From the NCBI GenBank assembly GCA_965223005.1, contig CBDCVK010000010.1:1-64000 (forward strand): a stretch of DNA of 64,000 nucleotides. Direction: 5' to 3'. The position numbers were made by a program, and so were the translations under genes. This document shows positions 1 through 14,250 of the stretch, piece by piece. A model generated the notes under the pieces. That model did no database searches and was not told the DNA's origin. It was given only the letters and a program-made list of their open reading frames with translations. Positions within the stretch are counted from its first letter, which is position 1, and each line of letters starts with the position of its first letter. This DNA comes from Terriglobia bacterium (GTDB lineage: Bacteria > Acidobacteriota > Terriglobia > JAJPHL01 > JAPKYU01).

Positions 1-1
1 G

Positions 2-448
2 GCCGTACTCTGCAATCTGCCATACCGATTTGTTGTCCCGCTGCCCGTACGCGAGTCCGAAGTCCTCAACTTCTCCAACCAGCACTGGCGACAGCTCGAC
101 GATGCCGGCATGATCACCCACGACCTGGCCCCAGACGAAGTCGCTCAAGCCCTTGCACTCAAGAAGCGCCATCCCGCCCTCTCCGCCAATGACTGCTTCT
201 GTTGCGTCACAGCACTCGCGTACCCCGGCATCCTGCTGACCGGCGACGCTCTGCTCCGTAGAGTCGCGTCCGACAACGGCCTGCGCGTACACGGCGTGCT
301 TTGGATCGTCGACGAACTAGATGCAACCGGAGGCTGCGCCGGATCGCTGCTGACCCAAGCGCTGAAGGTCTGGCAAGGCGACAACACGGTCTTTCTGCCC
401 CAAGACGAGATCTCCAAGCGACTGAAGTACCTTGCTACGCGGTCGTGA
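2..448 (+). CDS. PIN-domain protein (5' partial)
   Basis: Frame is open from the window edge (AVLCNLPYRFVVPLPVRESE...) through ORF 110-448. Contains PIN-like C-terminal motifs LSANDCFC, LLTGDALLR, VHGVLW. Confidence 0.75.
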   Translation, partial: AVLCNLPYRFVVPLPVRESEVLNFSNQHWRQLDDAGMITHDLAPDEVAQALALKKRHPALSANDCFCCVTALAYPGILLTGDALLRRVASDNGLRVHGVLWIVDELDATGGCAGSLLTQALKVWQGDNTVFLPQDEISKRLKYLATRS

Positions 449-885
449 CGGCTACAGCTACGACGATCAACCCCGAGCGTCAGATGCTCTAAGGGCGCAC
501 AGGTCGAGTTCGAGTCGTGCGTCTCATCACGGACCCAGATACGTGCTCGAGTGTTCCTATTGCGGAAAACGCTTCGAGCACCGGACGAACGACCCGACGT
601 TGCGGGCCCACAAGGACAAGGGCAGCTCCAGAGCTCTTATTTTCTGCTGCAATTGCGGATGCGGGCCGGGGGATTGCAGCTGCCGATCATCCGTGTCCAT
701 TCGCATGCTCTAATACTCGTTTCTTGCGCCGAATGTCCCGCTGAGCTGTGTTCATGACCGACCTCCAGATTCTGGACACCTACGGTTACACAATGTGTCC
801 AGCGAGGTCGGAATTTTCTACAAACCACGTATCGAGTACCGCCAGCCGTCCGGAATCCCAGGTGCGGTTGATATGGCGCGCGTGT

Positions 886-2105
886 TTACTCGACCAAAGC
901 AGCTTCCTTGAGCGGCTCGATCACCCCATTTTCTAACTTGCCTTGGTCAAAACCCTTTTCGGACTCCGCGCGCACCGAGACGGAGACCTTACCGGCGAGG
1001 TCGGCGAGGTTCGCAACGGCGTTCCAGGCGGAGAAAAGCTGATTACGGTCGGCTGAGAACGCGATCTCCACCACTTTCTGCTGGGCGGCATCCTCCGTCG
1101 TGGTCTGTCCTAGGGACGGATCGACTGCGGGTCCTGCACCGACCGGTGGCGTCAGTGTCAGGTCCTGGGGCGCAGCGGCTGCAGGCTGCGGAATCGCCTG
1201 GGGCATCATGATGAAGCCAGACTCAAGGTCGATCTCGTCCTCTGCGATATCAGTAGCGATGAGGACTTTGGCAAGCGAGACCAGGTACTTTCCGTCTGGG
1301 CCAAGATCCGGTATTGCCCCCGAGACGTAACCGAACGTCCCTTCTTGGACACCCCTTGCTATCGCCTTCCGGATAACACCGCTCGTCGTGAGCCGAGTAA
1401 ATCCGAGGAAGGAGAAGAACCCATCCATGACTTCAGTTGTCCGCACAGCGAATTTCGGCGACGTACCCTCGCCGAGCTTGAAGAGTTCGACAATCTTTCG
1501 AGGTGTAAGAGTAGAAAACACCCGCGGCTAGACCGTCATCAAGAGTTCCATGATCCGCTCGTGGATCATTGCCTCCTTCTTCTCGTTCAGCGTCGTCTGC
1601 AGTGGGCGGCCTCCCACTGCAACGGTCTCGATGCCAATCGTACCGCCTTCGGCACGTGGGAGGCGGACTTCTGTGTACAGCTTCAGGAAGGCGGACTCGG
1701 CCGCCGCCTTCTCGGTGGCCTCGCGCTCTCGAAGTTGGCTCCTCTGTTCATCAGTGAGGTTGTGTTGCCTCGCCTTCGCCTTGACCTGCTCAATTGCGAC
1801 CAGGTATCTCACGGACCGTCGGAGGCTCTCAACTTGATCGCCAGAAGGAACGGCCAGTCCGAGGCCATTGCGATACCCGCGCGGTTTCTCGCCGTACTTC
1901 CCAAAGATTTCCTTCGCTTGGGTTTCCTGGCCGGCCTTCGATCTTGTTGCGAACTCAAGAGGAAGGTAGGCGATCAGAAACGAAGGATCGTCATTTGGCA
2001 CGCTTACCGTCTTGTCAGGCCAGACAATGGCTGAACGGCGACCCGCAAGCCGTGCCTCCAACATTTCCTTGATTCGATCACGGACTCGGTTTTCGTCCCG
2101 GGCGA
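886..2105 (-). pseudogene. C-terminal part of a DUF499-like AAA+ ATPase, truncated by IS5 and carrying an internal TAG
   Basis: ORFs 1528-2064 and 886-1521 are in the same frame, separated by one TAG (GTC TAG CCG CGG GTG). Motifs PRGYRNGL and RKAIARGVQEGTFGY resemble DUF499 C-termini. The frame runs up to the IS end at 2106. Confidence 0.65.
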
Positions 2106-3167
2106 GGCGTTGTTGCGTAATTCGCGCTCGCGGCGAACCGGGCCGAGAAGCTCATCCGCCTCAGCACACGCGCTCCGATCGTGGCATTCCAAGCTCCGCC
2201 ATCCGGTTCAGCACAGCGCACTTGATCGCGGCTTCGACTTTTTGGTTCTTGACCGTGCGGGCCGAGAGGCTTACCCCGAGTATCGCCTTGTACCGTGAGA
2301 CCGTATTCTCCGCCACGCTCTGGCGAGTGCAGCCACTCGACTTCCGCCACTCATAACGGCCCTGCGTCCTAATACGCCGGAGATGGGTATCACGCATCGC
2401 ACGCCACAGAGGCGGATGAGAGTCTCGGCTGCATCGTGCATTGCGTTGCGGCAAGATCGTCACGATAGCGTCGTGCTGGAGCACGGCCTCGTAGCAGGAA
2501 CCCGTGTCGTAGGCCCGGTCTGCGGAGACTTGCCCGATCGAACCAGGAGTCTTAGACAGCAACGAAGAGAGCCTTCGGGCGTCGTGGACGTTGCTCGCAG
2601 TCAGGTCCATCGCAACGATCTCTTTCGTCGTCTCATCGACGCCTAGGTGGAGCTTTCGCCATGTCCTACGGCGGAGGGTTCGGTGTTTTCTGATGTGCCA
2701 CTCACCGGCTCCGTAGATCTTCAGGCCCGTCGAATCGATGACGACATGTCGTGGTCGATCCGTGGGCCCTACACTCAGTCGGACGTCGACGGCGCTTTGC
2801 CTTCGGCTCACCGTGCTGTAGTTGGGCACTGGGAGGTCGAGAGCCATGAGCGCCACGATGGATTGAAGGAACCCTTGAGTGGTCCGTAGGTTGAGGTGAA
2901 ACACCGAATTCAGGACCAGCGCACATTGGATCGCCGCATCTGCGTAGACCTTGGGCCGGCCTCGCCCTTCGAAGGGTTCTGGATGACGCCAGGCAGCGAC
3001 TGCCTCCGTGTCGAACCACAGTGTCAGCTGCCCACGTTTCACCAGAGCCCGCTTGTACTCCGGCCAGTTGCGAACCTTATATCGGAAGGTGTAGTCGCTT
3101 TTGCCCATCCCCTAGCCGATCAGGAGGGAGAGCGTTGGGGATGGAGTCAGATTTCTGCAACAACGCC
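2106..3167 (-). mobile_element. IS5 family (IS903 group) element, copy 1
   Basis: 1062 bp. Terminal IRs GGCGTTGTTGCGTAA / GGCGTTGTTGCAGAA. Single transposase. No target-site duplication. Confidence 0.92.
2161..3108 (-). CDS. IS903-group DDE transposase
   Basis: YKVRNWPEY..ALVKRG, IDSTGLK.YGAGEW, WRKLHLGVD, SADRAYD motifs. Confidence 0.93.
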   Translation of the reverse strand: MGKSDYTFRYKVRNWPEYKRALVKRGQLTLWFDTEAVAAWRHPEPFEGRGRPKVYADAAIQCALVLNSVFHLNLRTTQGFLQSIVALMALDLPVPNYSTVSRRQSAVDVRLSVGPTDRPRHVVIDSTGLKIYGAGEWHIRKHRTLRRRTWRKLHLGVDETTKEIVAMDLTASNVHDARRLSSLLSKTPGSIGQVSADRAYDTGSCYEAVLQHDAIVTILPQRNARCSRDSHPPLWRAMRDTHLRRIRTQGRYEWRKSSGCTRQSVAENTVSRYKAILGVSLSARTVKNQKVEAAIKCAVLNRMAELGMPRSERVC

Positions 3168-4379
3168 CTCGTCATCATATAAAGCATCGGATAAAAGCGA
3201 TTTCCTCTGCCCGGAACCTCCAAAATCGCTTTCGTTCAGCCTCAGATTAGCTCGCCCCTGTCGAAGAATTTCTGTAAGTCGACTCAAAGCCTGACCGGGG
3301 GTATCCCCCGTCGCATCCTCGATGGCTTCCAAATCGGTATTCAATTTGCTCTCCGTCGAGCCGGAGTATCGGCCCCAGAGCATTGTGTGGATGTACCAGA
3401 ATAACAACCGGTCTCGTTCCTCTTGGTCGGTAAGCTTTCCACCGCGTTGGACCAAATAGCGGCTCATGAGAGGAATCGCATAGCGGCTTCCAAGAACTCG
3501 GTCGTGATCGAGTCCAAGGCGGCTGGCAATGAGATTCAGAAGTCGATCGATAACTTTCTCGGATTTTTCAAGGCCTTCACGAAAAGTCTCAGCACCGATG
3601 TTTTTCATCGCCGTAAAGAGTGCCTCGCCCGTCACGACAGCATTGATGTTTCGAAGCAGCCAATCAAGCTTGAATTGGTAGCCCGCCTTCTGCCATTTCG
3701 ACAGCCTCTTTTTCATCTCGGCGCGGGCTTCCGGCCACTCAGCGCAAATCTTGGCGAGCGTCAGGTCACCCTTTGACAGCTTGGTTCCACCGCTATTGAC
3801 GCGGTTAAAGATGTCCACCACAACGTCAACCGTCTTATCTCCCCCGGTGACCTCTTCCATGTGGAGGTCAGTCGCCGTGATGTTCTCAATGGCATTGATG
3901 CGATTCAAATACTCGGAAATGTGCGGCTGGAATTCGGGGACTAGTAACAGGTGCTGCATCGTCGCCCCTGCCCCGTCTCGCATGACCGTGGTGACGCTCA
4001 GCCAGCGAGGGTCATCTTTCATTTTCGTTGGTGAATAGAACTCGAATGTCTCTTCTTCAAGGTTGAAATAGAGCCCCGTAAAGGTTTGGACGTTACCGTC
4101 GAAGAACTGGGGCGGCTTTCCACGAACGATGCCGTACAGAGAGGTGATTCGCTGTTGTCCGTCCAAAAGTAGTTTGACTGTGCCGGGCGTTAATTGTTGA
4201 TCGCCTCTCGCGTCAGCGGTTTCAGTCTTCGTGACCCATACAAGCAAACTCCCAACTGGATGCTTACGGTAAAGCGAGTACATTAGCGCGCGAACTTGGT
4301 CACGGTTCCAGACGTAGCCTCGCTGAAATTCTGGAAGTGCCATCGAGCCTAAGTCGATTTGGTTAAGAATAGTTTGAAC
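3168..4379 (-). pseudogene. DUF262 (GmrSD N-terminal-like) protein, clipped at both ends
   Basis: LPEFQRGYVW, LLLDGQQR, IFNRVNSGGTKLS motifs. The IS3 IR at 4380 removes the first codon(s). A +1 shift near 3210 (shifted frame reads GRGNRFYPMLYMMT) precedes the cut by IS5. Confidence 0.85.
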
Positions 4380-5075
4380 TGACCTGGCCCCCTTCAATCG
4401 GTCCAGTTGATAAGTTAGAGGTTAGGGTACGGACTGGACATGGAAGGGGGGAGGAATGCCCCGCAGAGGCCGGCTGTGGTTGAACGATGGGTCATGCCTT
4501 CGGTTAAGACCGTGCTGGCAGGATCATGTCTGGGCGTACGATTTTGTGACAGATCGAACCCACGATGGTCGTCCACTGAAGATCTTGACGGTGGTGGATG
4601 AATACACGCGAGAGTGTTTGGCAATCGACGTAGAACGGCGAGCCGATTCGATGAGTGTCTTGGAACGGCTAGCAGCCTTGTTTGTGGAGCGGGGAGTTCC
4701 CGATTGCCTTCGCTCGGATAATGGGTCCGAGTTCACCGCTCGGTTGGTACGGGACTGGCTGGAACGGGTCGGGGTAAAAACCCTGTTCATCGAGCCTGCG
4801 AGCCCCTGGGAAAACGGGTATGTGGAATCGTTTAACGGGAAGTTTCGAGACGAGTTTCTGAATGGAGAGATCTTTTACACCTTGCGGGAAGCGAAGGTGT
4901 TGATTGAGGGATGGCGGCGGGAGTATAACAGAGTTCGCCCGCACAGCGCGTTGGGCTACCGGCCGCCAGCCCCGGAAGTGATCCTGCCGTTACCGCCGGG
5001 TTCCGCCCCGCTCCACCCGGCTGCAACGGCGTATGGACTAACATGGAAGGTGGACCAATAACCGGGGGCAGGTCA
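4380..5075 (+). mobile_element. Internally deleted IS3-family element
   Basis: IRs TGACCTGGCCCC..TCGGTCCA / TGACCTGCCCCC..TTGGTCCA. Only 696 bp. Encodes an rve/DDE domain but no OrfA HTH. Confidence 0.85.
4456..5061 (+). CDS. IS3 OrfB catalytic (rve) domain fused to an OrfA-like start
   Basis: WAYDFV, VVDEYTRE, SDNGSEF, SPWENGYVESFNGKFRDE, RPHSALGY motifs. Strong RBS GGAGG before MPR. Confidence 0.8.
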   Translation: MPRRGRLWLNDGSCLRLRPCWQDHVWAYDFVTDRTHDGRPLKILTVVDEYTRECLAIDVERRADSMSVLERLAALFVERGVPDCLRSDNGSEFTARLVRDWLERVGVKTLFIEPASPWENGYVESFNGKFRDEFLNGEIFYTLREAKVLIEGWRREYNRVRPHSALGYRPPAPEVILPLPPGSAPLHPAATAYGLTWKVDQ

Positions 5076-5267
5076 TCGGTCTCCAGCGTGAACAGGCTAA
5101 AGCGCTTGGACGCATGGTCGATGTCAAAACCGAGAACGCTGCCGACTGCGTAGAGCTCGCCATCTCCGGCCGTCCCAGACTTGAATGCGGACGTCTCCGA
5201 AACCCGGTCTTGCCATAAGTCTCCTGACATAGAGTCTGTCCACCTCGGGGTAGTAATGAAGCTGCAG
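5076..5267 (-). pseudogene. DUF2283-like antitoxin remnant
   Basis: LQLHYYPEVDRLYV in one frame and VLGFDIDHASKRFSLFTLET in another. Cut by the IS3 end. Confidence 0.55.
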
Positions 5268-5771
5268 TTGGCCCTTTCGAAATCTCCGATGCGAGGTAGG
5301 CAATCTGCGGCCATGCGTCGCTTTGCCGCCCAATAACTGGTCATCGACGGGCATGTTGTGCGTCGTGAACTTCAGAAGCTTGATAGCTCAAATAAAGGGG
5401 ATTATAGACCTAAGTCACAACTCCGCTCATCTTGCGCTTGTACAGCACAGGCCCGTTGCCGCCCAATAGGAGCGGGCCAATTCGTACAGGCGATTGCCAG
5501 ATGTCACTCGATGTCGGCCTCCAACTCAGCTTTGGAAGGCTTGTACGAATTAGGCATAAGATGCGCAAGAAGCTTCATCTACGGCTTAGGTTACTTCACG
5601 GCTTTAAGAACGCGCTGTGTGAAAGTACTGGCTGCCAACTCCATGGTGATCTCCATAGTTCAAGACCACAGCTCGTTTGGTAACTTCGTACGCTTGCTCG
5701 ATAGTGTAAGGCGAGACGTATTCGAGTATTGTCAAGGACTGATTTCTTTAGACACTGATTCTGAGAGTTTT

Positions 5772-6560
5772 TTACGCGACTAACGCATACCGTTTGGCGA
5801 ATACCACAGGCGGCATGTTGAGCGCGGAGTGAATCCGCGTGTTGTTGTAGTCCCACAGGGTGCGGTAGATCTCCGCCACTAGCTCCCCCAGTGTTTTGAA
5901 GCGGTTCGGATCTCCCAGGTCAACCTTGAATTTGTCGTAGAACGATTCCTGGTATCCGTTCTCCCAAGGGCACCCCGGGCGGCTCCGTGAAATCACGATG
6001 CCGCATCCATCAAGGATTTCAGTGAACGCCATCGCCTCATACTCCCTCCCGTTGTCGGAGTGGAATAGATCCGGGCGCGGATGATGGAGCAGGGCGTTGG
6101 AAAGCGCCTGAATGGTGAGCGCGGCTCCCTTTCTCACCGTAACCTGGATTCCCAGGATCCGGCGGGTGTAGAGATCGATCACGGTCGCCACATAGACCTT
6201 CTTTCCGTGCTGCACGAACTCGGTGAAGTCCGCTGCCCAGATGTGGTTTGCATATGCGGGCATGACCGCGAGCAGGAGGTTGGGATAGGTCCGGGAAACC
6301 TTGGATTTTCTCCATTTTCTGCCTCTCCTGCGGTAGGGCTTGATGCCAAACAGACGCATGACCCTCTGCGCCCGCTGGCGGCAGAGTCCCAGTGCCGTAG
6401 CAATTCGCCGGGAGCCGTAGGAGGGATGGATCTGCAGCTCTTCTTCCAGGCGGACCTTGAGGCGCCAGTCCTTCTCCTTCATTCTTGGGACGTAATACAG
6501 GCTCGCGCGGGATATGCCAAGGGCTCGGGCAAGCGCTGATTTGTTTCTTCCTTCGCTCAA
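5772..6560 (-). CDS. IS3 transposase OrfB
   Basis: YGSRRI, WAADFT, VIDLYTR, FHSDNGREY, CPWENGYQESF, RIHSAL motifs. Confidence 0.9.
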   Translation of the reverse strand: MSEGRNKSALARALGISRASLYYVPRMKEKDWRLKVRLEEELQIHPSYGSRRIATALGLCRQRAQRVMRLFGIKPYRRRGRKWRKSKVSRTYPNLLLAVMPAYANHIWAADFTEFVQHGKKVYVATVIDLYTRRILGIQVTVRKGAALTIQALSNALLHHPRPDLFHSDNGREYEAMAFTEILDGCGIVISRSRPGCPWENGYQESFYDKFKVDLGDPNRFKTLGELVAEIYRTLWDYNNTRIHSALNMPPVVFAKRYALVA

Positions 6561-6816
6561 TTGTTTTTTGGGTCATGGAGAGCTTGAGCGTGATCTCGCC
6601 CACGAGTTCCAGGAGTTCTCTGTTCTGCTTCTGAAGCCGGGAGAACTCCGCCCAGGACGGGGCACCGGTTGCTCCCTTTACCATCCAACCATAGATGGTC
6701 CCTTCAGAAATACCGTGATCCTTGGCGGCCTGGGCCACCGAGATGCCTTCTTCCTTGACGCGGCGTAGGATATCGGCTTTTACGTCGGCTGCAATACGAT
6801 GATGTTTCTTGTTCAT
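6561..6816 (-). CDS. IS3 transposase OrfA (HTH); stop lost by an apparent A7>A6 deletion
   Basis: HTH region SVAQAAKDHGISEGTIYGW plus leucine zipper. Adding one A to CAAAAAAC restores a TGA and puts OrfB in the -1 frame. Confidence 0.8.
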
Positions 6817-6974
6817 ATGACACCAGGGTAGTTAATTCCCAACCTCAGTGTCTAAATTACCCAGTCCAGGGCAAACACTCGCGTTCCATCGGTTAAATGC
6901 AAGAAACCGCTATTCGTGCTCTTCGTCAGAGAGTTTAGGCGGGCGTTCAGCCAGGTCTCCTGCGTGGAAGCGGC

Positions 6975-7520
6975 GGCGGCAGTGCGCTTACGTGGTTTGT
7001 TTGGCGGTCCTTCGCGCCCACTATCGCAGACTTGCCAACAGTCCCCCGCCCAACATTCAGCTTCTTGGAACTATGCTTGTTCCTTTCAAGCCCCCCAGTT
7101 AGGTCTCATCAACTTCGACCGGGCCTTCGAAAAGTTTACCAGCCACCTCTAGAGACTTTCGCAACCTATGGGCCAGGTGCCATGCGGACTTTTGACTGAT
7201 CCCCAAGTCCCGATGGAGCTTCATCGACGAGACACCTTTGAGACTCGTGGTAAGCAAGTATACCGCAATCGCCCATACCTTGTACGGAAGCTTGGACCCT
7301 TCCATGACGGTTCCCGTTTTCAGGGAGAACATCCTCCGGCCAGGGCATTCACGGCAACGATGCGTCATGGTCCGGTGCTTGATGTTAGCCTGAACGTTTG
7401 ACGATTCGCAGTAAGGACACACTGGGCCATTCGGCCAAAATTGCTGCTCGAACCATGCTTTTGCAGTGGAATCGTCATGGAACATGTCCATTAGTGCCAC
7501 GAGAGTTACTCCCTTACGGT
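6975..7520 (-). pseudogene. IS1595-family transposase remnant
   Basis: Zn ribbon CPYC/CREC, KGVSSMKLHRDLGISQKSAW and VEVDET followed by a premature TAA. A shifted frame continues RNKHSSKKLNVGRGTVGK. The N-terminus is cut by IS5 copy 2. Confidence 0.85.
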
Positions 7521-8582
7521 GGCGTTGTTGCGTAATTCGCGCTCGCGGCGAACCGGGCCGAGAAGCTCATCCGCCTCAGTACACGCGCTCCGATCGTGGC
7601 ATTCCAAGCTCCGCCATCCGGTTCAGCACAGCGCACTTGATCGCGGCTTCGACTTTTTGGTTCTTAACCGTGCGGGCCGAGAGGCTTACCCCGAGTATCG
7701 CCTTGTACCGTGAGACCGCATTCTCCGCCACGCTCTGGCGAGTGCAGCCACTCGACTTCCGCCACTCATAACGGTCCTGCGTCCTAATACGCCGGAGATG
7801 GGTATCACGCATCGCACGCCACGGAGGCGGATGAGAGTCTCGGCTGCATCGTGCATTGCGTCGCGGCAAGATCGTCACGATAGCGTCGTGCTGGAGCACG
7901 GCCTCGTAGCAGGAACCCGTGTCGTAGGCCCGGTCTGCGGAGACTTGCCCGATCGAACCAGGAGTCTTAGACAGCAACGAAGAGAGCCTTCGGGCGTCGT
8001 GGACGTTGCTCGCAGTCAGGTCCATCGCAACGATCTCTTTCGTCGTCTCATCGACGCCTAGGTGGAGCTTTCGCCATGTCCTACGGCGGAGGGTTCGGTG
8101 TTTTCTGATGTGCCACTCACCGGCTCCGTAGATCTTCAGGCCCGTCGAATCGATGACGACATGTCGTGGTCGATCCGTGGGCCCTACACTCAGTCGGACG
8201 TCGACGGCGCTTTGCCTTCGGCTCACCGTGCTGTAGTTGGGCACTGGGAGGTCGAGAGCCATGAGCGCCACGATGGATTGAAGGAACCCTTGAGTGGTCC
8301 GTAGGTTGAGGTGAAACACCGAATTCAGGACCAGCGCACATTGGATCGCCGCATCTGCGTAGACCTTGGGCCGGCCTCGCCCTTCGAAGGGTCCTGGATG
8401 ACGCCAGGCAGCGACTCCCTCCGTGTCGAACCACAGTGTCAGCTGCCCACGTTTCACCAGAGCCCGGTTGTACTCCAGCCAGTTGCGAACTTTATATCGG
8501 AAGGTGTAGTCGCTTTTGCCCATCCCCTAGCCTATCAGGGGGGAGAGCGTTGGGGATGGAGTCAGATTTCTGCAACAACGCC
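7521..8582 (-). mobile_element. IS5 family (IS903 group) element, copy 2
   Basis: Near-identical direct copy of 2106-3167 with the same IRs and length (1062 bp). No TSD. Confidence 0.92.
7576..8523 (-). CDS. IS903-group DDE transposase
   Basis: 315 aa with a few substitutions relative to copy 1. Confidence 0.93.
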   Translation of the reverse strand: MGKSDYTFRYKVRNWLEYNRALVKRGQLTLWFDTEGVAAWRHPGPFEGRGRPKVYADAAIQCALVLNSVFHLNLRTTQGFLQSIVALMALDLPVPNYSTVSRRQSAVDVRLSVGPTDRPRHVVIDSTGLKIYGAGEWHIRKHRTLRRRTWRKLHLGVDETTKEIVAMDLTASNVHDARRLSSLLSKTPGSIGQVSADRAYDTGSCYEAVLQHDAIVTILPRRNARCSRDSHPPPWRAMRDTHLRRIRTQDRYEWRKSSGCTRQSVAENAVSRYKAILGVSLSARTVKNQKVEAAIKCAVLNRMAELGMPRSERVY

Positions 8583-8624
8583 CATCCTAACCTCCGAATC
8601 GTCAGCGCAGCGGAGCCGGGTTCG

Positions 8625-9056
8625 TCAGTCATCCAGAAGGTTGATCAAGCGCAACCCGGGGTATGCCGAAAAACCGCGGTCCAGGGTCACCCATTCGCAA
8701 CCGTGTTCGATTGCCAGGGCCGCATGATAGGCATCCGGAATCCGATTGCCCGTTAGTTGGAGCGTCTCAGACATGCCGCGAAATATGCGCCAATGAGCGC
8801 CGCCGGGACGCAGGGCCGTGCTCGCGGGCTGTGCAAGCAACGCATCAACGAAGGCGATGGCTGCCGCACCAGGCGTAGGCGGATGGAATATCCGAGGGTG
8901 CGTCAATACGCGGAGCACACCGCTGAGCACGAGTTCGAACAGGCCGACCCTATCCCGGCCCGACAAAGCTTCGGCCAGCCACCTCCGGCAGCGTGCGTGA
9001 TGGATTGCGTCCTCGCGGAATGCGCTCACCAGAACATTGACGTCAGGACTCTGCAT
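8625..9056 (-). CDS. vapC: VapC PIN-domain toxin
   Basis: DVNVLV, acidic PIN residues, IPDAYHAALAIEHG, TLDRGF. Overlaps the upstream antitoxin. Confidence 0.9.
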   Translation of the reverse strand: MQSPDVNVLVSAFREDAIHHARCRRWLAEALSGRDRVGLFELVLSGVLRVLTHPRIFHPPTPGAAAIAFVDALLAQPASTALRPGGAHWRIFRGMSETLQLTGNRIPDAYHAALAIEHGCEWVTLDRGFSAYPGLRLINLLDD

Positions 9057-9282
9057 TCATGATGGCTTCGAGCGACGCGTTGTCCGTCAAATCCACGCCA
9101 GGTTGCACACCTTGTCCACGAAACACCGGTATGGGTGGAGCGTCGGCAACGGCGTGAGTTGGGCCCGCCAGGAACTCGCGAAGAGCCTGCTCGATTGTTA
9201 CTTTCAGAGTCTTGCGCTCACACGCCGCATGGGCCTTGACCGCCCGTAGCAACTCCTCATTGATATCTATCGTCGTTCTCAT
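9043..9282 (-). CDS. vapB: VapB RHH antitoxin
   Basis: MRTTIDINEELL...GVDLTDNASL, typical of actinobacterial-type VapB. Confidence 0.88.
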   Translation of the reverse strand: MRTTIDINEELLRAVKAHAACERKTLKVTIEQALREFLAGPTHAVADAPPIPVFRGQGVQPGVDLTDNASLEAIMNAES

Positions 9283-9286
9283 GTGT

Positions 9287-9312
9287 GAAAGCATACTCGT
9301 AAATATGCTTTC
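9287..9312. promoter_or_regulatory. Putative VapB operator
   Basis: Perfect 9-bp inverted repeat GAAAGCATA-N8-TATGCTTTC immediately upstream of the vapB ATG. Confidence 0.65.
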
Positions 9313-9324
9313 GCGCAATAACTG

Positions 9325-9507
9325 CCACTAAAACGACGACATCCCCGGCACGAAGATGATCGAGGAGCCGGAGGAGTTGGGACCGGTCCCAACTCTTCTG
9401 GAAGCCTTCTCGCGAAAGATGCATTCGCACCCCGCCTCTTTCAGCGCCGCTACCTGAGCAGTAGTGTCCTGATCTTCCGTAGATACGCGGGCGTAACCAA
9501 TCAGCAT
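9325..9507 (-). pseudogene. Serine recombinase (resolvase) N-terminal remnant
   Basis: MLIGYARVSTEDQD..QVAALKEAGCECIFREKAS, then a frameshift to WDRSQLLRLLDHLRAGDVVV, then truncated. Confidence 0.85.
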
Positions 9508-9606
9508 TGCGCAAACATATTGCCAATCGAATCAGTACAGCAATAAAGTTGTTGATAACGCAAAGAATTGAACGTAACCGATGGAGAGAAAAGAAGCAGT
9601 GACGGC

Positions 9607-9647
9607 GCTTAGAAGGCAGATGCTCTGTCCGCCTGAGCTACGGGCGC
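9607..9647 (-). tRNA. 5' half only of tRNA-Arg(TCT) (fragment, att-like)
   Basis: GCGCCCGTAGCTCAGGCGGACAGAGCA-TCTGC-CTTCTAA-GC contains the acceptor 5' strand, D arm, anticodon stem 5' strand and loop. No T arm follows. Confidence 0.85.
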
Positions 9648-9784
9648 GATCTTAGGAATTCTAACATGGGCGCGCGTGGGTCCTGCTCCTGCGTGCAAAC
9701 CATTCGCCTTACATGCCGGTTCGCCGGGCGGCAGTCTGTCTATGTTGCGGTTGGCCGCCGCCCGCTCTTTAACGATCTGCCGCC

Positions 9785-10231
9785 TTAGCCGGTGTTGGAG
9801 ATTTGCAGGCGCGCGGCCTCTTGGGCCACCTTGTCCGCACGTAGGTTGTCGGGATGCTGGGCATGCCCCTTCACCCATTGCCAGCGCATCCGGTGGCGCG
9901 CCAAGCTTCGGTCCAGCGCCTCCCACAGGTCCTTGTTTTTCACCGGCGTCTTCCCTGAGGTTACCCAATGGTTCTGCTTCCATTTGGACATCCACTGGGT
10001 CACTCCGCGGCGGACGTATTCCGAGTCGGTGACGACGGCAACCTGGCAGGACTCTCTTAGCGCGCTGAGCCCCGCAATCACCGCAGTCAGTTCCATGCGG
10101 TTGTTGGTAGTGTGGGGCTCGGAGCCGCACAATTCACGATAGCGCCCCCGGTAGCGCAGCAGGCAGGCCCACCCGCCCGGCCCAGGATTTCCCAGACAAG
10201 CGCCGTCTGTGATCAGTGTCACCTGTTTCAT
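9785..10231 (-). CDS. rnhA: Ribonuclease HI
   Basis: TDGACLGNPGPGGW, TTNNRMEL, TDSEYV, VKNKDLW, WVKGH, NLRAD. Confidence 0.95.
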   Translation of the reverse strand: MKQVTLITDGACLGNPGPGGWACLLRYRGRYRELCGSEPHTTNNRMELTAVIAGLSALRESCQVAVVTDSEYVRRGVTQWMSKWKQNHWVTSGKTPVKNKDLWEALDRSLARHRMRWQWVKGHAQHPDNLRADKVAQEAARLQISNTG

Positions 10232-10791
10232 TGAGGTAGGCCGCGAGCGCATGCCAGGGCGTATCGGCCTGCGATGATTTAACCACATCAAGGATTGGAT
10301 TCGTGGTGCCGCGCCTCTGAACGGACAGTTGGGGAGCGAGCGGAATTCGTTGTCACGGCCCGTGTTCAGCCAAATGTCCCTCTGTACACTGTGAGGCACA
10401 TCGGGGGCCAAAGACGCGTGGTTGCCCGTGCCAGGGCGCATCTTGCTTGTACTGAGGAGGATAGCACCAGCTCAAGGGGTTTCCCGCAATCTGGGCACGG
10501 CTGGGAAGAGCAAACTCTTGCTCACAAAAGTGCGTTTTGTCTTGACATGAAAAGCTTCCCCGCCAAAACTAGTAAGTAAGTTGCTTGGCTGGATCCCCCA
10601 GTTGACTCCCCTCGATGTATAGGTGTAGGTCTTAGCACACCGGCCGCGTTGGTGGGTGATTAGTTCTTTTCGGCCGAACTAAGAATTTGCGAAGTGTAAA
10701 GCTCCCCCTGTCGGACACGTACGTTTTGTGCGGGTCTGGCTGAGCCACAATGCCACGTGACCTGAGACAACCACGTGCACGGTGAAACGCC

Positions 10792-12048
10792 ATGACTACC
10801 ACAGCACAATTGGGCTCCTTGCACCTGTATGCCCCACTGGAATCGCACGCCATGGAGGCGGTCAAGGTCGCCATTTGCGAACAGACCCAGGATTACTGCT
10901 TGCAAAAATACAGACGGCGTCTCAGGGCCATCGTGCTGACCGGTAGCCTGGCGCGCGAGGAGGCCACGGTGGTCAGGGAGGCCCAGCGCTGCCACCTGCT
11001 CGGGGACGCCGATTTTCTCTTGTTGTTTGATGGACACTCCCCCCTTCCTCCCACGCCCGATGTGGAGGGGCTTCGACAGCAAATAGAAACTGCTCTCCTC
11101 GCTTGCGACTTGGTCTGTCACACCACGTTGGGCGTTGTGCGCACCAGTTACCTGCGCAAGCTGGCGCCGACCGTCTTTGCCTACGAACTGCAGGCCTGTG
11201 GCCAAGTGGTGTGGGGCGACCCGGAGGTGCTCTCACTGATTCCCACGCTTTCGCCATTAGACATTGCCCTGGAAGACGCCTGGCGCCTGCTCACCAACCG
11301 AATGATTGAGCATCTGGAGACCGTCGAGGAGCGCCCAGGCGCCTCGGCAACCATGTCGCACACGGCGTACTACCGGACGACGAAGCTCTACCTGGACATG
11401 GCCACCTCGTTTCTTCTGTTTGCCGGGGCCTATGCGCCAACCTACCGGGAACGAGCCAAGCACCTGGCCGGGCTGGTGAAAAACCTGCCTGCCGAGCAAA
11501 TCCCCTTCCCGCTGGCACGTTTCTCAGAAACAGTCACTGCCTGCACCCGCTGGAAGTTATGCCCATCCGAGAGCGATCCCCGGCCGGGGTGGGAGTTCTG
11601 GGACGAAGCAGTCGCCTACGCACGCCGGTTGTGGCGATGGGAACTGGAGCGTCTGACGGGCGCACCTGCGAATGCTTCTGAACAGGAATTGCGGCAGCAG
11701 TGGATGCGGTGCCAGCCGGTCCATCGCCGCCTGCACGGATGGCTGTATGTGCTTCGCAAGCACGGATGGCACCGCAGTTGGCGCCACTGGCCGGAATGGA
11801 CACGGTTGGGCTGGCATGCCTCGCCCCGCGACTGGATTTACGCCGCTGCCGGCGAACTGTTCTGCCGGCTCCCGGATTCGCCCAGCCGCGCCAATGGGCA
11901 GCCGGCGCAGGAGCTGGACTGGGAACAAGTGCGAGGTTGGCTGCCGGTGCGGAGGGACGAGCCGAACGGCCATCCGCCCCCGTGGGGTCGTCTGGCTTCG
12001 GAAATTATGTGGAACTACCAGCAGTTTCTGGGAGGAACACGGGCATGA
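10792..12048 (+). CDS. Pol-beta-like nucleotidyltransferase with helical C-terminal domain
   Basis: hGS motif LTGSLAR followed by GDADF. Long ORF with typical codon usage. Confidence 0.6.
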   Translation: MTTTAQLGSLHLYAPLESHAMEAVKVAICEQTQDYCLQKYRRRLRAIVLTGSLAREEATVVREAQRCHLLGDADFLLLFDGHSPLPPTPDVEGLRQQIETALLACDLVCHTTLGVVRTSYLRKLAPTVFAYELQACGQVVWGDPEVLSLIPTLSPLDIALEDAWRLLTNRMIEHLETVEERPGASATMSHTAYYRTTKLYLDMATSFLLFAGAYAPTYRERAKHLAGLVKNLPAEQIPFPLARFSETVTACTRWKLCPSESDPRPGWEFWDEAVAYARRLWRWELERLTGAPANASEQELRQQWMRCQPVHRRLHGWLYVLRKHGWHRSWRHWPEWTRLGWHASPRDWIYAAAGELFCRLPDSPSRANGQPAQELDWEQVRGWLPVRRDEPNGHPPPWGRLASEIMWNYQQFLGGTRA

Positions 12049-12229
12049 GACCTCCCAGCCAGCTTGCCGGTGCCGGCGCACCGCTAAACAGGGGAGGAGC
12101 GGGCAAGAAACAGAGGTAGAGATTCGGAACTGCCCTGCTGGCGATGGGCGACGTTTTACGACGGCTCTTGGAGCCATAGGGAACCGATCACCGGCTGTCT
12201 CACAGGCAGGCAGGTGTGCTGAAAGCTTT

Positions 12230-12265
12230 AGAAAGCGGCAGGGATTACCTGCCGCTTTCTTCTTT
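12230..12265. terminator. Intrinsic terminator-like hairpin
   Basis: 13-bp stem AGAAAGCGGCAGG-gatta-CCTGCCGCTTTCT followed by TCTTT. Confidence 0.7.
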
Positions 12266-12321
12266 AGCTTGAGATTCGCCTTTTCGCTTAACCTACCCTG
12301 TGTGGCTCTGCCTCGCAGGCA

Positions 12322-14250
12322 GTGATCAACAAAGTCAGAACTGAGAGGTTTGTGGCCATGACCCGTCCGAATCTCCAAACACATCCGTTCAAGAGCTTCT
12401 TCCAGATCGTATTGTGTGTTCTGGTTGGTTTCATCTTTCTTCTTGGCGCGAAACCTTCCCGTGCCGACTCTCCAGCCGTAACAGTAAGCAGGAACCGGAT
12501 GATGCCCACGCGGGACGGGATTCGGTTGGCCACCGATATTTACCTTCCCACCGTTGAGGACCAATCCAACCTTGGGCCGTTTCCCGCAATTCTCATTCGC
12601 ACGCCCTACGGTAAAAATAGCCTGAATTCATCCGGGGAATTTTTCGCCAAGCGAGGATATGCGGTTGTTACTCAGGATGTGCGCGGCAGGTATGACTCTG
12701 AAGGTGAATTCTATATCTACGTAAACGAGGGAAAGGACGGATATGACGCAGTTGAATGGGTCGCAGGCCAGCCATGGTGCAACGGCGATGTAGGCACTTA
12801 TGGTAGATCGTACATGGCCGCGACCCAAAATGCTTCGGCTGTGTACAGCCCTCCCCACCTCAAAACGATGTTCGTCATTGTCGGCACATCCAATTACATA
12901 GAAGACGGGGCCGGACGTGGGGGCGCCTTTGCGTTGCTTCATAACATGGCATACGCTTTCCGGCTTGCCTTCACGGGGAAGGAAGCGCGAAAGGATGCCA
13001 AGGTTGCGGCTGCACTGCGCCGGGCATATGACCACCTGCCTGACTGGCTCCGCGCAGCTCCGCTGAAATCTGGTTCTCCCCTGCAATGGGCACCGACCTA
13101 CGAACGATGGTACGCGGATTGGCGGATGCATCCGGCCTATGACCACTATTGGAAGCAGATCGGTTACAACTTTGAGGAATATCACTCCCGCTATCCGGAG
13201 ATTCCGATTTATTTTGTCGGTGGTTGGTATGACCTGTTTAAACGGGGAACGTTAAGTAATTTTGAGGGACTTTCCCAAAGGAACGCCTTTACGAAGCTCT
13301 GTATGGGTCCCTGGACGCACAGTGCGGGGATCACGCCTGCCGGGGATGTTGATTTTGGTCCCCGGGCCAAGATGTCCATTCAGGATGAAGCCGCACGCTG
13401 GTTCGATCAATTTCTGAAGGGTAAAGACATGGGTATCTTGCAGGAACCGCCTGTGAAATATTTCCTGATGGGCGGGGGGGATGCGACCAGAAACAAGAAT
13501 GGCCGTTTACAAAGCGGAGGTGTTTGGAAGGAAGCTCAAACCTGGCCTCCAAGCGGGTTCCGGGAGCAAAAGTTCTACCTCCATGGGGACGGTACGCTCC
13601 AAGCAACTTCCCGCGAGTCAACAGTCCCAAGCCGCTTTCAATTCGATCCCAGAAAGCCTGTGCCGACGGTGGGCGGGAATATTGACTCCGGGAAGCATTT
13701 GGTCCGCAGGGGCGCGCAGAATCAGGTGCCGCCAGCCAACTACTTCGCCGCCGACAATCAAATGCCATTGTCGGCGCGGCATGATGTTCTGACCTTTGCG
13801 ACCCCTCCCTTGACACATGATATGGAGGTCACTGGTCCCATGCGCGTTACCCTCTGGGTCTCCTCGGAAGCCAAAGATACGGATTTTACCGCCAAACTGA
13901 TCGACGTTTATCCACCTTCCGATGACTACCCAGCGGGCTACGCGATGAATCTGGAAGACGGAATACTCCGCATGCGTTTTCGAAAGTCTCGGGAGCGGGA
14001 AGGACTGATGAAACCGGGAACCATCTATCAGATTTCCATCGACCTCTGGGCTACCAGTAACCTGTTCCGCAAGGGCCACAAAATAAGATTGGATATCTCC
14101 AGCAGCAATTTTCCCATGTACGACGTAAACCCGAACACCGGGGAGCCTTTAGGGCGCCACACGCACGTGATTTCCACAGTCAACACTGTTTATCACGATC
14201 CTGAGCACCCATCATGTTTAGTCCTCCCGGTTCGTGGCGAGTGGAGGTAG
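12322..14250 (+). CDS. CocE/NonD (S15) family hydrolase, secreted
   Basis: RDGIRLATDIY, RTPY, QDVRGRYDSEG, nucleophile GRSY, GGWYD, GPWTH. Has a signal peptide; the start may be 12358. Confidence 0.92.
   Translation: MINKVRTERFVAMTRPNLQTHPFKSFFQIVLCVLVGFIFLLGAKPSRADSPAVTVSRNRMMPTRDGIRLATDIYLPTVEDQSNLGPFPAILIRTPYGKNSLNSSGEFFAKRGYAVVTQDVRGRYDSEGEFYIYVNEGKDGYDAVEWVAGQPWCNGDVGTYGRSYMAATQNASAVYSPPHLKTMFVIVGTSNYIEDGAGRGGAFALLHNMAYAFRLAFTGKEARKDAKVAAALRRAYDHLPDWLRAAPLKSGSPLQWAPTYERWYADWRMHPAYDHYWKQIGYNFEEYHSRYPEIPIYFVGGWYDLFKRGTLSNFEGLSQRNAFTKLCMGPWTHSAGITPAGDVDFGPRAKMSIQDEAARWFDQFLKGKDMGILQEPPVKYFLMGGGDATRNKNGRLQSGGVWKEAQTWPPSGFREQKFYLHGDGTLQATSRESTVPSRFQFDPRKPVPTVGGNIDSGKHLVRRGAQNQVPPANYFAADNQMPLSARHDVLTFATPPLTHDMEVTGPMRVTLWVSSEAKDTDFTAKLIDVYPPSDDYPAGYAMNLEDGILRMRFRKSREREGLMKPGTIYQISIDLWATSNLFRKGHKIRLDISSSNFPMYDVNPNTGEPLGRHTHVISTVNTVYHDPEHPSCLVLPVRGEWR

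Follow-up and report, generated by a model that had tools for sequence, protein, structure and literature searches.

In the window analysed here, which covers the opening 64 kb of contig C10 (1.67 Mb) in an assembly of 3.24 Mb (G000; 10 contigs, 96% complete), a gene for tRNA-Arg(TCT) is reduced to its 5' half, with core genes on one side and mobile DNA on the other. The locus raises the question of how this half became separated from the rest of its gene, and where the working gene is to be sought. According to the reading favoured here, to which a probability of about 0.82 is assigned, the half was displaced by a tyrosine-integrase island that recombined in the anticodon loop, the junction has since decayed, and the working gene lies in unassembled DNA.

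The tRNA half and its surroundings

Read on the minus strand, the 41 nt of the half comprise the acceptor stem, the D arm, the 5' side of the anticodon stem, the loop CTTCTAA and a final GC (Table 1). After AAGC, two bases past the anticodon loop, the half breaks and is followed by GCCGTC, not by the AGA that would close the stem. The alignment of the half to an intact tRNA-Arg(TCT) from a genome of the same family (L013) has an E-value of 3.6e-11. No tRNA was called by ARAGORN in the window, and the Rfam scan of 9000–10400 at E ≤ 10 gave no tRNA match, as expected for a half; the sole match in that interval was a chance, snoRNA-like one (16 bits, where the gathering score is 100). The original prediction had described a clean 41-nt 5' half of tRNA-Arg(TCT) that ends at the anticodon loop, at the point where core genes give place to mobile DNA. 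The coordinates proved to be exact, rnhA lies to the right of the half and the resolvase fragment, vapBC and insertion sequences to the left, and in 11 other junctions the break falls where it does in the window, or up to two bases before that point. The site at which the fragment meets island DNA is a defined part of the tRNA, namely the anticodon loop.

Table 1. Features of the window around the tRNA-Arg(TCT) 5' half
Feature	Position	Strand	Basis
IS5-type insertion sequence	7521..8583; second copy 2106–3168	-	98.8% over 1063 nt; DDE_Tnp_1_5, DDE_Tnp_1
IS3-type insertion sequence	5730..6873	-	three more genome copies, 98.6–99.2%; rve, HTH_Tnp_1
vapC/PIN	8625–9056 (cassette spans 8625..9318)	-	PIN, 4.6e-16
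vapB	9043–9318	-	VapB_antitoxin, 5.1e-05
Serine resolvase N-terminal fragment (59-aa ORF)	9328..9507	-	PF00239, 7.1e-07, profile positions 2–43 of 145
Breakpoint at which arm similarity ends	9545..9546	.	alignment of 7 junctions
Putative remnant of the island's distal att arm, 61 nt (spacer between crossover and conserved box)	9546..9606	-	identity to relatives' junctions
tRNA-Arg(TCT) 5' half, displaced, read as native	9607..9647	-	sequence reading; 95% to intact same-family tRNA, positions 1–40
TGTTAGAAT, candidate extended -10 of the native tRNA promoter	9658..9666	-	sequence reading
rnhA, core gene upstream of the tRNA	9785..10441 (RNase H domain from 10231)	-	Pfam RNase_H, 1.3e-45

Since the half follows rnhA as it does in G001, with 98% identity in the flank on the rnhA side, it is read as the host's native 5' half of tRNA-Arg(TCT); in its present state it is a pseudogene-like relic. 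The rnhA match (Pfam RNase_H, 4e-46 on 9785–10231) is 94% to G001 and 84% to G003. At the same locus in G003, rnhA likewise precedes the half, in the same orientation, and two more ORFs are listed in between.

In addition to the elements given in Table 1, the DNA to the left of the half harbors an IS1595 fragment and a GmrSD gene. DNA resembling the resolvase fragment is found elsewhere in G003 and G001. The region of the vapBC cassette (8611–9335) shares 87–90% DNA identity with G029, G037 and G060, three genomes of a different family, which indicates that the cassette has spread horizontally on its own. No Phage_integrase domain was detected by Pfam among the 20 ORFs scanned in positions 1–14250 of the window, which reaches just 9.6 kb to the left of the half; the family integrases of G000 are located on C5 and C6, unlinked to this site.

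The hexamer of TGTTAGAAT is separated by 10 nt from position 1 of the tRNA. A two-hexamer promoter scan did not list this site, the scan requiring a -35 hexamer and having no extended -10 in its model. In relatives, TAGAAT or TAGGAT hexamers are found 9–11 nt upstream of tRNA-Arg(TCT) genes or halves, and the extended -10 in the window is a plausible candidate. Because the half, the resolvase fragment and vapBC are all co-oriented on the minus strand, a transcript might start with the tRNA half and extend into the resolvase/vapBC region; a terminator-like hairpin is present on the same strand at 9358–9340.

A conserved arm that breaks after 61 nt

The 61 nt that follow the half are found at other tRNA junctions. 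The half and arm together share 96% identity over 102 nt, the tRNA half included, with the Arg(TCT) half of G003, and the arm, read from 9606 to 9546, is 87% identical to the sequence behind a Val(TAC) 5' half on contig C1 of G000, which is broken at the same place in the tRNA. In seven aligned junctions, located behind four tRNA species, these 61 nt are nearly invariant. They are therefore best described, on the strength of that conservation, as the putative conserved distal att arm of a family of tyrosine-integrase islands in Terriglobia (Acidobacteriota), the assignment in the window resting on sequence identity over the 61 nt only.

Alignment of the junctions revealed that the window alone diverges after ...CAACAACTT at 9546, whereas all of the six other junctions run on into a conserved box and paired direct repeats. 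The complete att arm required for excision is missing from the window, as the box and the paired repeats are absent, and the junction is for this reason a decayed remnant, probably no longer capable of excision. The resolvase fragment and vapBC have separate relatives, and the DNA left of 9545 is on that account read as a later mosaic and not as the body of the original island, of which 61 nt at its end would be all that survives in the window.

The Val(TAC) 5' half of G000 (C1:9715–9809, minus strand) is displaced as well, and carries a complete arm consisting of spacer, box and paired repeats.

The search for the arm covered 61 genomes of the same class (Terriglobia), G000 included. The arm, beyond the tRNA part, is present in at least five of them (G000, G001, G003, G033 and G054), and an exact scan with 27 nt of the arm returned four stretches in three MAG records (Bryobacterales, Terriglobia and Ca. 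Acidiferrales). It lies behind 5' halves of Arg(TCT), Val(TAC), Lys(TTT) (in G033) and Ala(TGC), and once behind a Pro(TGG) 3' half in reverse complement; the Ca. Acidiferrales MAG has it behind both an Arg(TCT) and an Ala(TGC) half. Arg(TCT) halves in G001, G003, G040, G032 and G054 are followed by two other spacer types, B and C, with an identical layout.

The native half linked to rnhA in G001 (L005; G001:C3:286015–286056) no longer has the T conserved at tRNA position 8 and is followed by a different spacer type. The difference in spacer points to independent integration at the rnhA-linked half within the genus, and the missing T is a sign that the G001 half is decaying.

Public contigs around the junction

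Four public runs were compared with the window as assembled contigs (Logan); three RNA runs contained only 6–14% of the sequence words. Among the contigs listed, none bridges 9607 or 9545/9546 with at least 31 letters on both sides. Record 7 of X1 (673 nt) covers 9601–10273 with one difference and crosses 9607 by 6 nt only, and a 309-nt contig of X3 is identical to 9607–9896 and carries 19 further letters. The loose-end consensus of X3 (six records, agreement 0.82), read on the tRNA strand, resembles the normal 3' continuation, which is a weak hint of an uninterrupted tRNA at the rnhA locus in that other sample.

These contigs bear on the possibility that C10 is chimeric at the 61-nt arm, a sequence repeated in the metagenome, in which case the half and its arm would be genuine, the resolvase/vapBC/IS DNA left of 9545 would come from elsewhere and the true genome would have the full arm and the island. 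In favour of a chimera, no listed contig bridges 9545/9546, and record 6 of X1 (depth 8.2) ends exactly at 9545, with record 7 on the rnhA side having a depth of 15.3. Moreover, in other samples the full arm is present left of 9546 and another sequence follows right of 9545, and the join is located just 9.5 kb from the contig end. On the other hand, a contig end at 9545 is also expected of a branching assembly graph if the join is real, assembled contigs show presence and not absence, and the contig in question is as long as 1.67 Mb. A chimeric contig is considered improbable, and decay of a genuine island junction is retained as the preferred reading.

Intact genes at the far end of related islands

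Three relatives, G040, G054 and G003, retain what the window lacks. In these genomes, an intact tRNA-Arg(TCT) gene, called as such by ARAGORN, lies on the same strand and the same replicon as the displaced half, at a distance of 50.4 kb (G040), 56.8 kb (G054) and 55.7 kb (G003), with the half upstream. A co-oriented integrase ORF of 385–393 aa ends 60–115 nt before each intact gene. One of these integrases, the one submitted to Pfam, matches Phage_integrase (E-value, 1.4e-15), and the others are 54–93% identical to it by blastp. The interval between integrase and tRNA contains a pair of direct repeats and a TAGAAT or TAGGAT hexamer. The repeat motif beside the displaced half is the same as that upstream of the intact gene in G040, G054 and both elements of G003 (E1 and E2).

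The displaced 5' half and the 5' half of the far-end gene are identical at 41 of 41 positions in G003, 40 of 41 in G040 and 39 of 39 in G054; the identity between displaced and island-borne halves runs to position 39–41 and then stops. Integrase, promoter, 5' half, spacer, box and repeats are contiguous in G003 and in the Acidiferrales MAG, an order that corresponds either to attP or to a tandem junction. The earlier suggestion that the locus represents the rarer arrangement, in which an island leaves a 5' fragment, is borne out for the family by these halves lying 50–57 kb upstream of intact, integrase-adjacent genes.

An extra, divergent tRNA-Arg(TCT) gene was found in G040 (L018, 1762–1838, plus strand; G040:C1:1567761–1567837), about 2 kb inside the island end and on the strand opposite to the displaced half. 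Given this gene, some islands may supply tRNA-Arg(TCT) in another way.

tRNA complement and codon use of the assembly

In G000, ARAGORN identified 42 tRNAs, none with the anticodon TCT and no Val(TAC). The assembly contains no second Arg(TCT) 5' half, and pattern searches of it for an Arg(TCT) 3' half yielded none; the matches obtained belonged to Arg(ACG), to unrelated coding DNA and to 3' pieces of other tRNA sites (C2:237823, C2:247624 and C5:13124). A search of the same assembly for the integrase-side promoter region of the islands and for arm types B and C returned only the tRNA half itself. Val 3' pieces with their own anticodon loop are present at C3:11770–11825 and C3:15906–15945, both on the plus strand.

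Both missing tRNAs must exist in the cell, since their codons are in use: of 44,744 Arg codons, 1395 are AGA, and among 986 crude long ORFs, 638 contain AGA and 901 contain GTA. Two genomes of the same genus at 97% completeness measure 4.3–4.4 Mb, as compared with 3.24 Mb for G000. It is most likely that the rebuilt Arg(TCT) and Val(TAC) genes lie in unassembled island DNA.

Two outcomes had been proposed for the AGA-decoding tRNA. That it stays off until excision is unlikely, in view of AGA being used in 638 of 986 long ORFs and of a truncated arm that lacks the two-arm repeats of the relatives. That the island rebuilds it at the far end under its own promoter agrees with what is found in the relatives, but in G000 itself neither the far end, nor the integrase-side region, nor an intact gene was found, and the assembly has no displaced fragment lying upstream of an intact cognate tDNA on the same replicon. 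Restoration at the far end is extrapolated to G000 from the relatives only.

The absence of rebuilt Arg(TCT) and Val(TAC) genes from G000 would also be expected if the island disrupted the tRNA without rebuilding it and brought a separate replacement tRNA, as in tRNA-dependent lysogeny of mycobacteriophages, a phenomenon known to exist (PMC10865867); the extra divergent tRNA-Arg(TCT) near the island end in G040 could be taken in the same sense. However, G000 has no stand-alone Arg(TCT) gene either, and in G040, G054 and G003 the intact gene lies exactly at the integrase-side junction, with a 5' half identical or nearly identical to the displaced one. Such near-identity is what conservative recombination with an attP carrying the 5' half predicts, and replacement by a separate tRNA is regarded as highly improbable.

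The least credible alternative, in which split or intron-containing tRNA genes are joined at the RNA level and the 61 nt are an intron start or a pairing leader, was prompted by the same 61 nt standing behind the 5' halves of two needed tRNAs that lack intact genes, and by the Val 3' half with its own anticodon loop at C3:11770–11825, but it was dropped as almost certainly wrong, because relatives with the same junctions have ordinary intact genes 50–57 kb away beside integrases and cognate arm repeats, the sequence common to the junctions runs on into pairs of direct repeats as are typical for att arms, and Rfam gave no intron or other family at E ≤ 10 in 9000–10400 beyond the chance snoRNA-like match.

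Proposed course of integration and decay

In the preferred reading, displacement by an island followed by decay, the integrase end of the island carries a pair of arm repeats, a promoter of its own and tRNA positions 1–40, and the other end carries the spacer of about 60 nt, the conserved box and the same arm repeats once more, again as a pair. Integration would join the 5' half of the island to the 3' half of the host, so that the far end gains an intact gene driven by the island promoter, and would leave the host 5' half fused to the spacer. In G000, the arm would later have been cut after 61 nt and joined to the resolvase fragment, the vapBC cassette and the IS elements. The crossover would lie within the 7-nt anticodon loop, and the direct repeats are putative arm sites of the integrase.

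Integrases of the heterobivalent lambda type use att sites that have arm-type repeats on both arms and a core between them. Each Terriglobia element appears to be built in the same manner, with paired direct repeats of one motif on both arms and a core in between. The core itself differs from that of lambda-type sites, as in the Terriglobia family it would be the anticodon stem-loop of a tRNA.

Comparison with known systems

According to the literature, islands that regenerate the tDNA they split and leave a fragment at their end are standard (Islander; Hudson, Lau and Williams 2015, PMC4383910). The Terriglobia islands resemble those described there in having a tyrosine integrase, a gene that is split and regenerated by the island, and a co-oriented displaced fragment that marks the end. 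Tandem arrays at one tDNA are also described in that account, and are found here in G003. Unlike in most Islander islands, the displaced piece is the upstream 5' half, an uncommon arrangement that the Islander filter allows (PMC4383910). The window further differs from the cases described in that source by having no island body, no integrase and no regenerated gene.

The 5'-half arrangement is seldom met in bacteria, as stated in PMC8371274 with reference to Williams 2002; the same source indicates that bacterial recombinant tRNA genes keep their own promoter, with very few exceptions. It also describes the pTN3-like integrases of Thermococcales, which use the 5' half of a tRNA gene as attB. 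Like the Terriglobia islands, those elements carry the 5' half, and the rebuilt tRNA is expressed from element DNA beside the integrase gene. They are, however, archaeal and belong to another integrase lineage, and their integrase gene is split on integration, whereas the Terriglobia integrase ORF remains whole and ends 60–115 nt before the tRNA. Islands at the tRNA-Arg gene arg2 of Klebsiella (bioRxiv 10.1101/2020.11.02.365908) are similar in that the 5' part is replaced and the island lies upstream, but the site described for them is in the D-loop, in the acceptor/D-arm region, whereas in Terriglobia the identity extends through the anticodon loop and breaks after position 39–41.

In tRNA-dependent lysogeny (Guerrero-Bustamante and Hatfull 2024, PMC10865867), the nearest model for an island that does not restore its target gene, a tyrosine integrase likewise acts at an attB overlapping a tRNA gene that the host requires, and an orphan piece is left. 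There, as described, no rebuilding takes place and the loss is complemented by a tRNA from the phage, whereas the Terriglobia relatives rebuild the gene at the junction; the intact tRNA-Arg(TCT) called by ARAGORN at the integrase-side junction sets them apart from that system.

A class of sites in the anticodon loop has been defined (Williams 2002, as cited in PMC8371274 and bioRxiv 10.1101/2020.11.02.365908), in which the 7-nt loop forms the overlap, the symmetric stem provides the flanks, and strand exchange takes place inside the loop. The end of identity at position 39–41 is compatible with this class. A non-exhaustive literature search found no paper on such islands in Acidobacteria.

Polarity and target of the integrases

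In G003 (L015; G003:C2:1911000–1918000), one tRNA-Arg(TCT) gene is flanked in mirror image by a 5'-type and a 3'-type element. The integrases of this pair are 70% identical, one being upstream and co-oriented and the other downstream and convergent, and the displaced 3' fragment has its spacer, box and repeats mirrored. For comparison, the 5'-type integrases share 55–64% identity among themselves, with one pair at 93%. Reported alongside the mirror pair is a 98.7% identical integrase at tRNA-Val(CAC) in G000.

The mirror pair, the Val(CAC) integrase and the one near-invariant arm behind several tRNAs suggest, tentatively and with the balance somewhat against it, that a single clade of Terriglobia integrases is flexible in polarity and target. 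Such integrases would recognise little beyond the shared core of the anticodon stem-loop, and the elements would swap the tRNA half that they carry, which would be a 3' half in some cases and a promoter-bearing 5' half in others.

At L015, the Arg tRNA is immediately preceded by, and fused to, part of a Val-like D arm, which may be the scar of a target change. In G011 (L010, 1–540; contig C34), an intact tRNA-Arg(TCT) stands behind three tandem units of about 147 nt; every unit opens with an acceptor/D-arm resembling that of tRNA-Arg, after which a GC hairpin replaces the anticodon stem.

Three further observations concern G000 itself. At C5:11855–13150, a family integrase (62% identical to that of G003) is followed by a chimeric tRNA 3' fragment with an Arg-like T arm and a Val-like acceptor end, which is joined to the apparent 3' end of a protein-coding ORF and possibly represents a secondary integration site. 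At C2:210611–247650, tRNA-Arg(CCG), which has an integrase next to it, precedes two 3'-end direct repeats of about 45 nt (at 237823 and 247624); the arrangement looks like a tandem array of islands with the ordinary polarity. At C10:1410380–1410450, on the minus strand, the CTTCTAAGC motif is followed by a T-arm-like hairpin with a TTCGAAT loop; no tRNA was called there by ARAGORN.

Implications

The 5'-fragment polarity of tRNA islands, seldom documented in bacteria, recurs in soil Acidobacteriota, and the family can be recognised by a signature consisting of tRNA positions 1–40, the conserved spacer, the box and the paired repeats. It accounts for the failure of tRNA finders to detect the essential Arg-UCU and Val-UAC tRNAs in such MAGs, the rebuilt genes lying in island DNA that assembles or bins poorly, and this is a practical warning for judgements of the completeness and decoding capacity of MAGs. 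The window, being a decayed relic only, has modest direct biological weight, and the suggested switching of polarity and tRNA within one integrase clade of the family is the part worth following. If such switching is true, it would constitute a naturally retargetable integration system that leaves behind promoter-bearing orphan tRNA halves, and these halves might be transcribed into the neighbouring cargo, which at this locus is vapBC.
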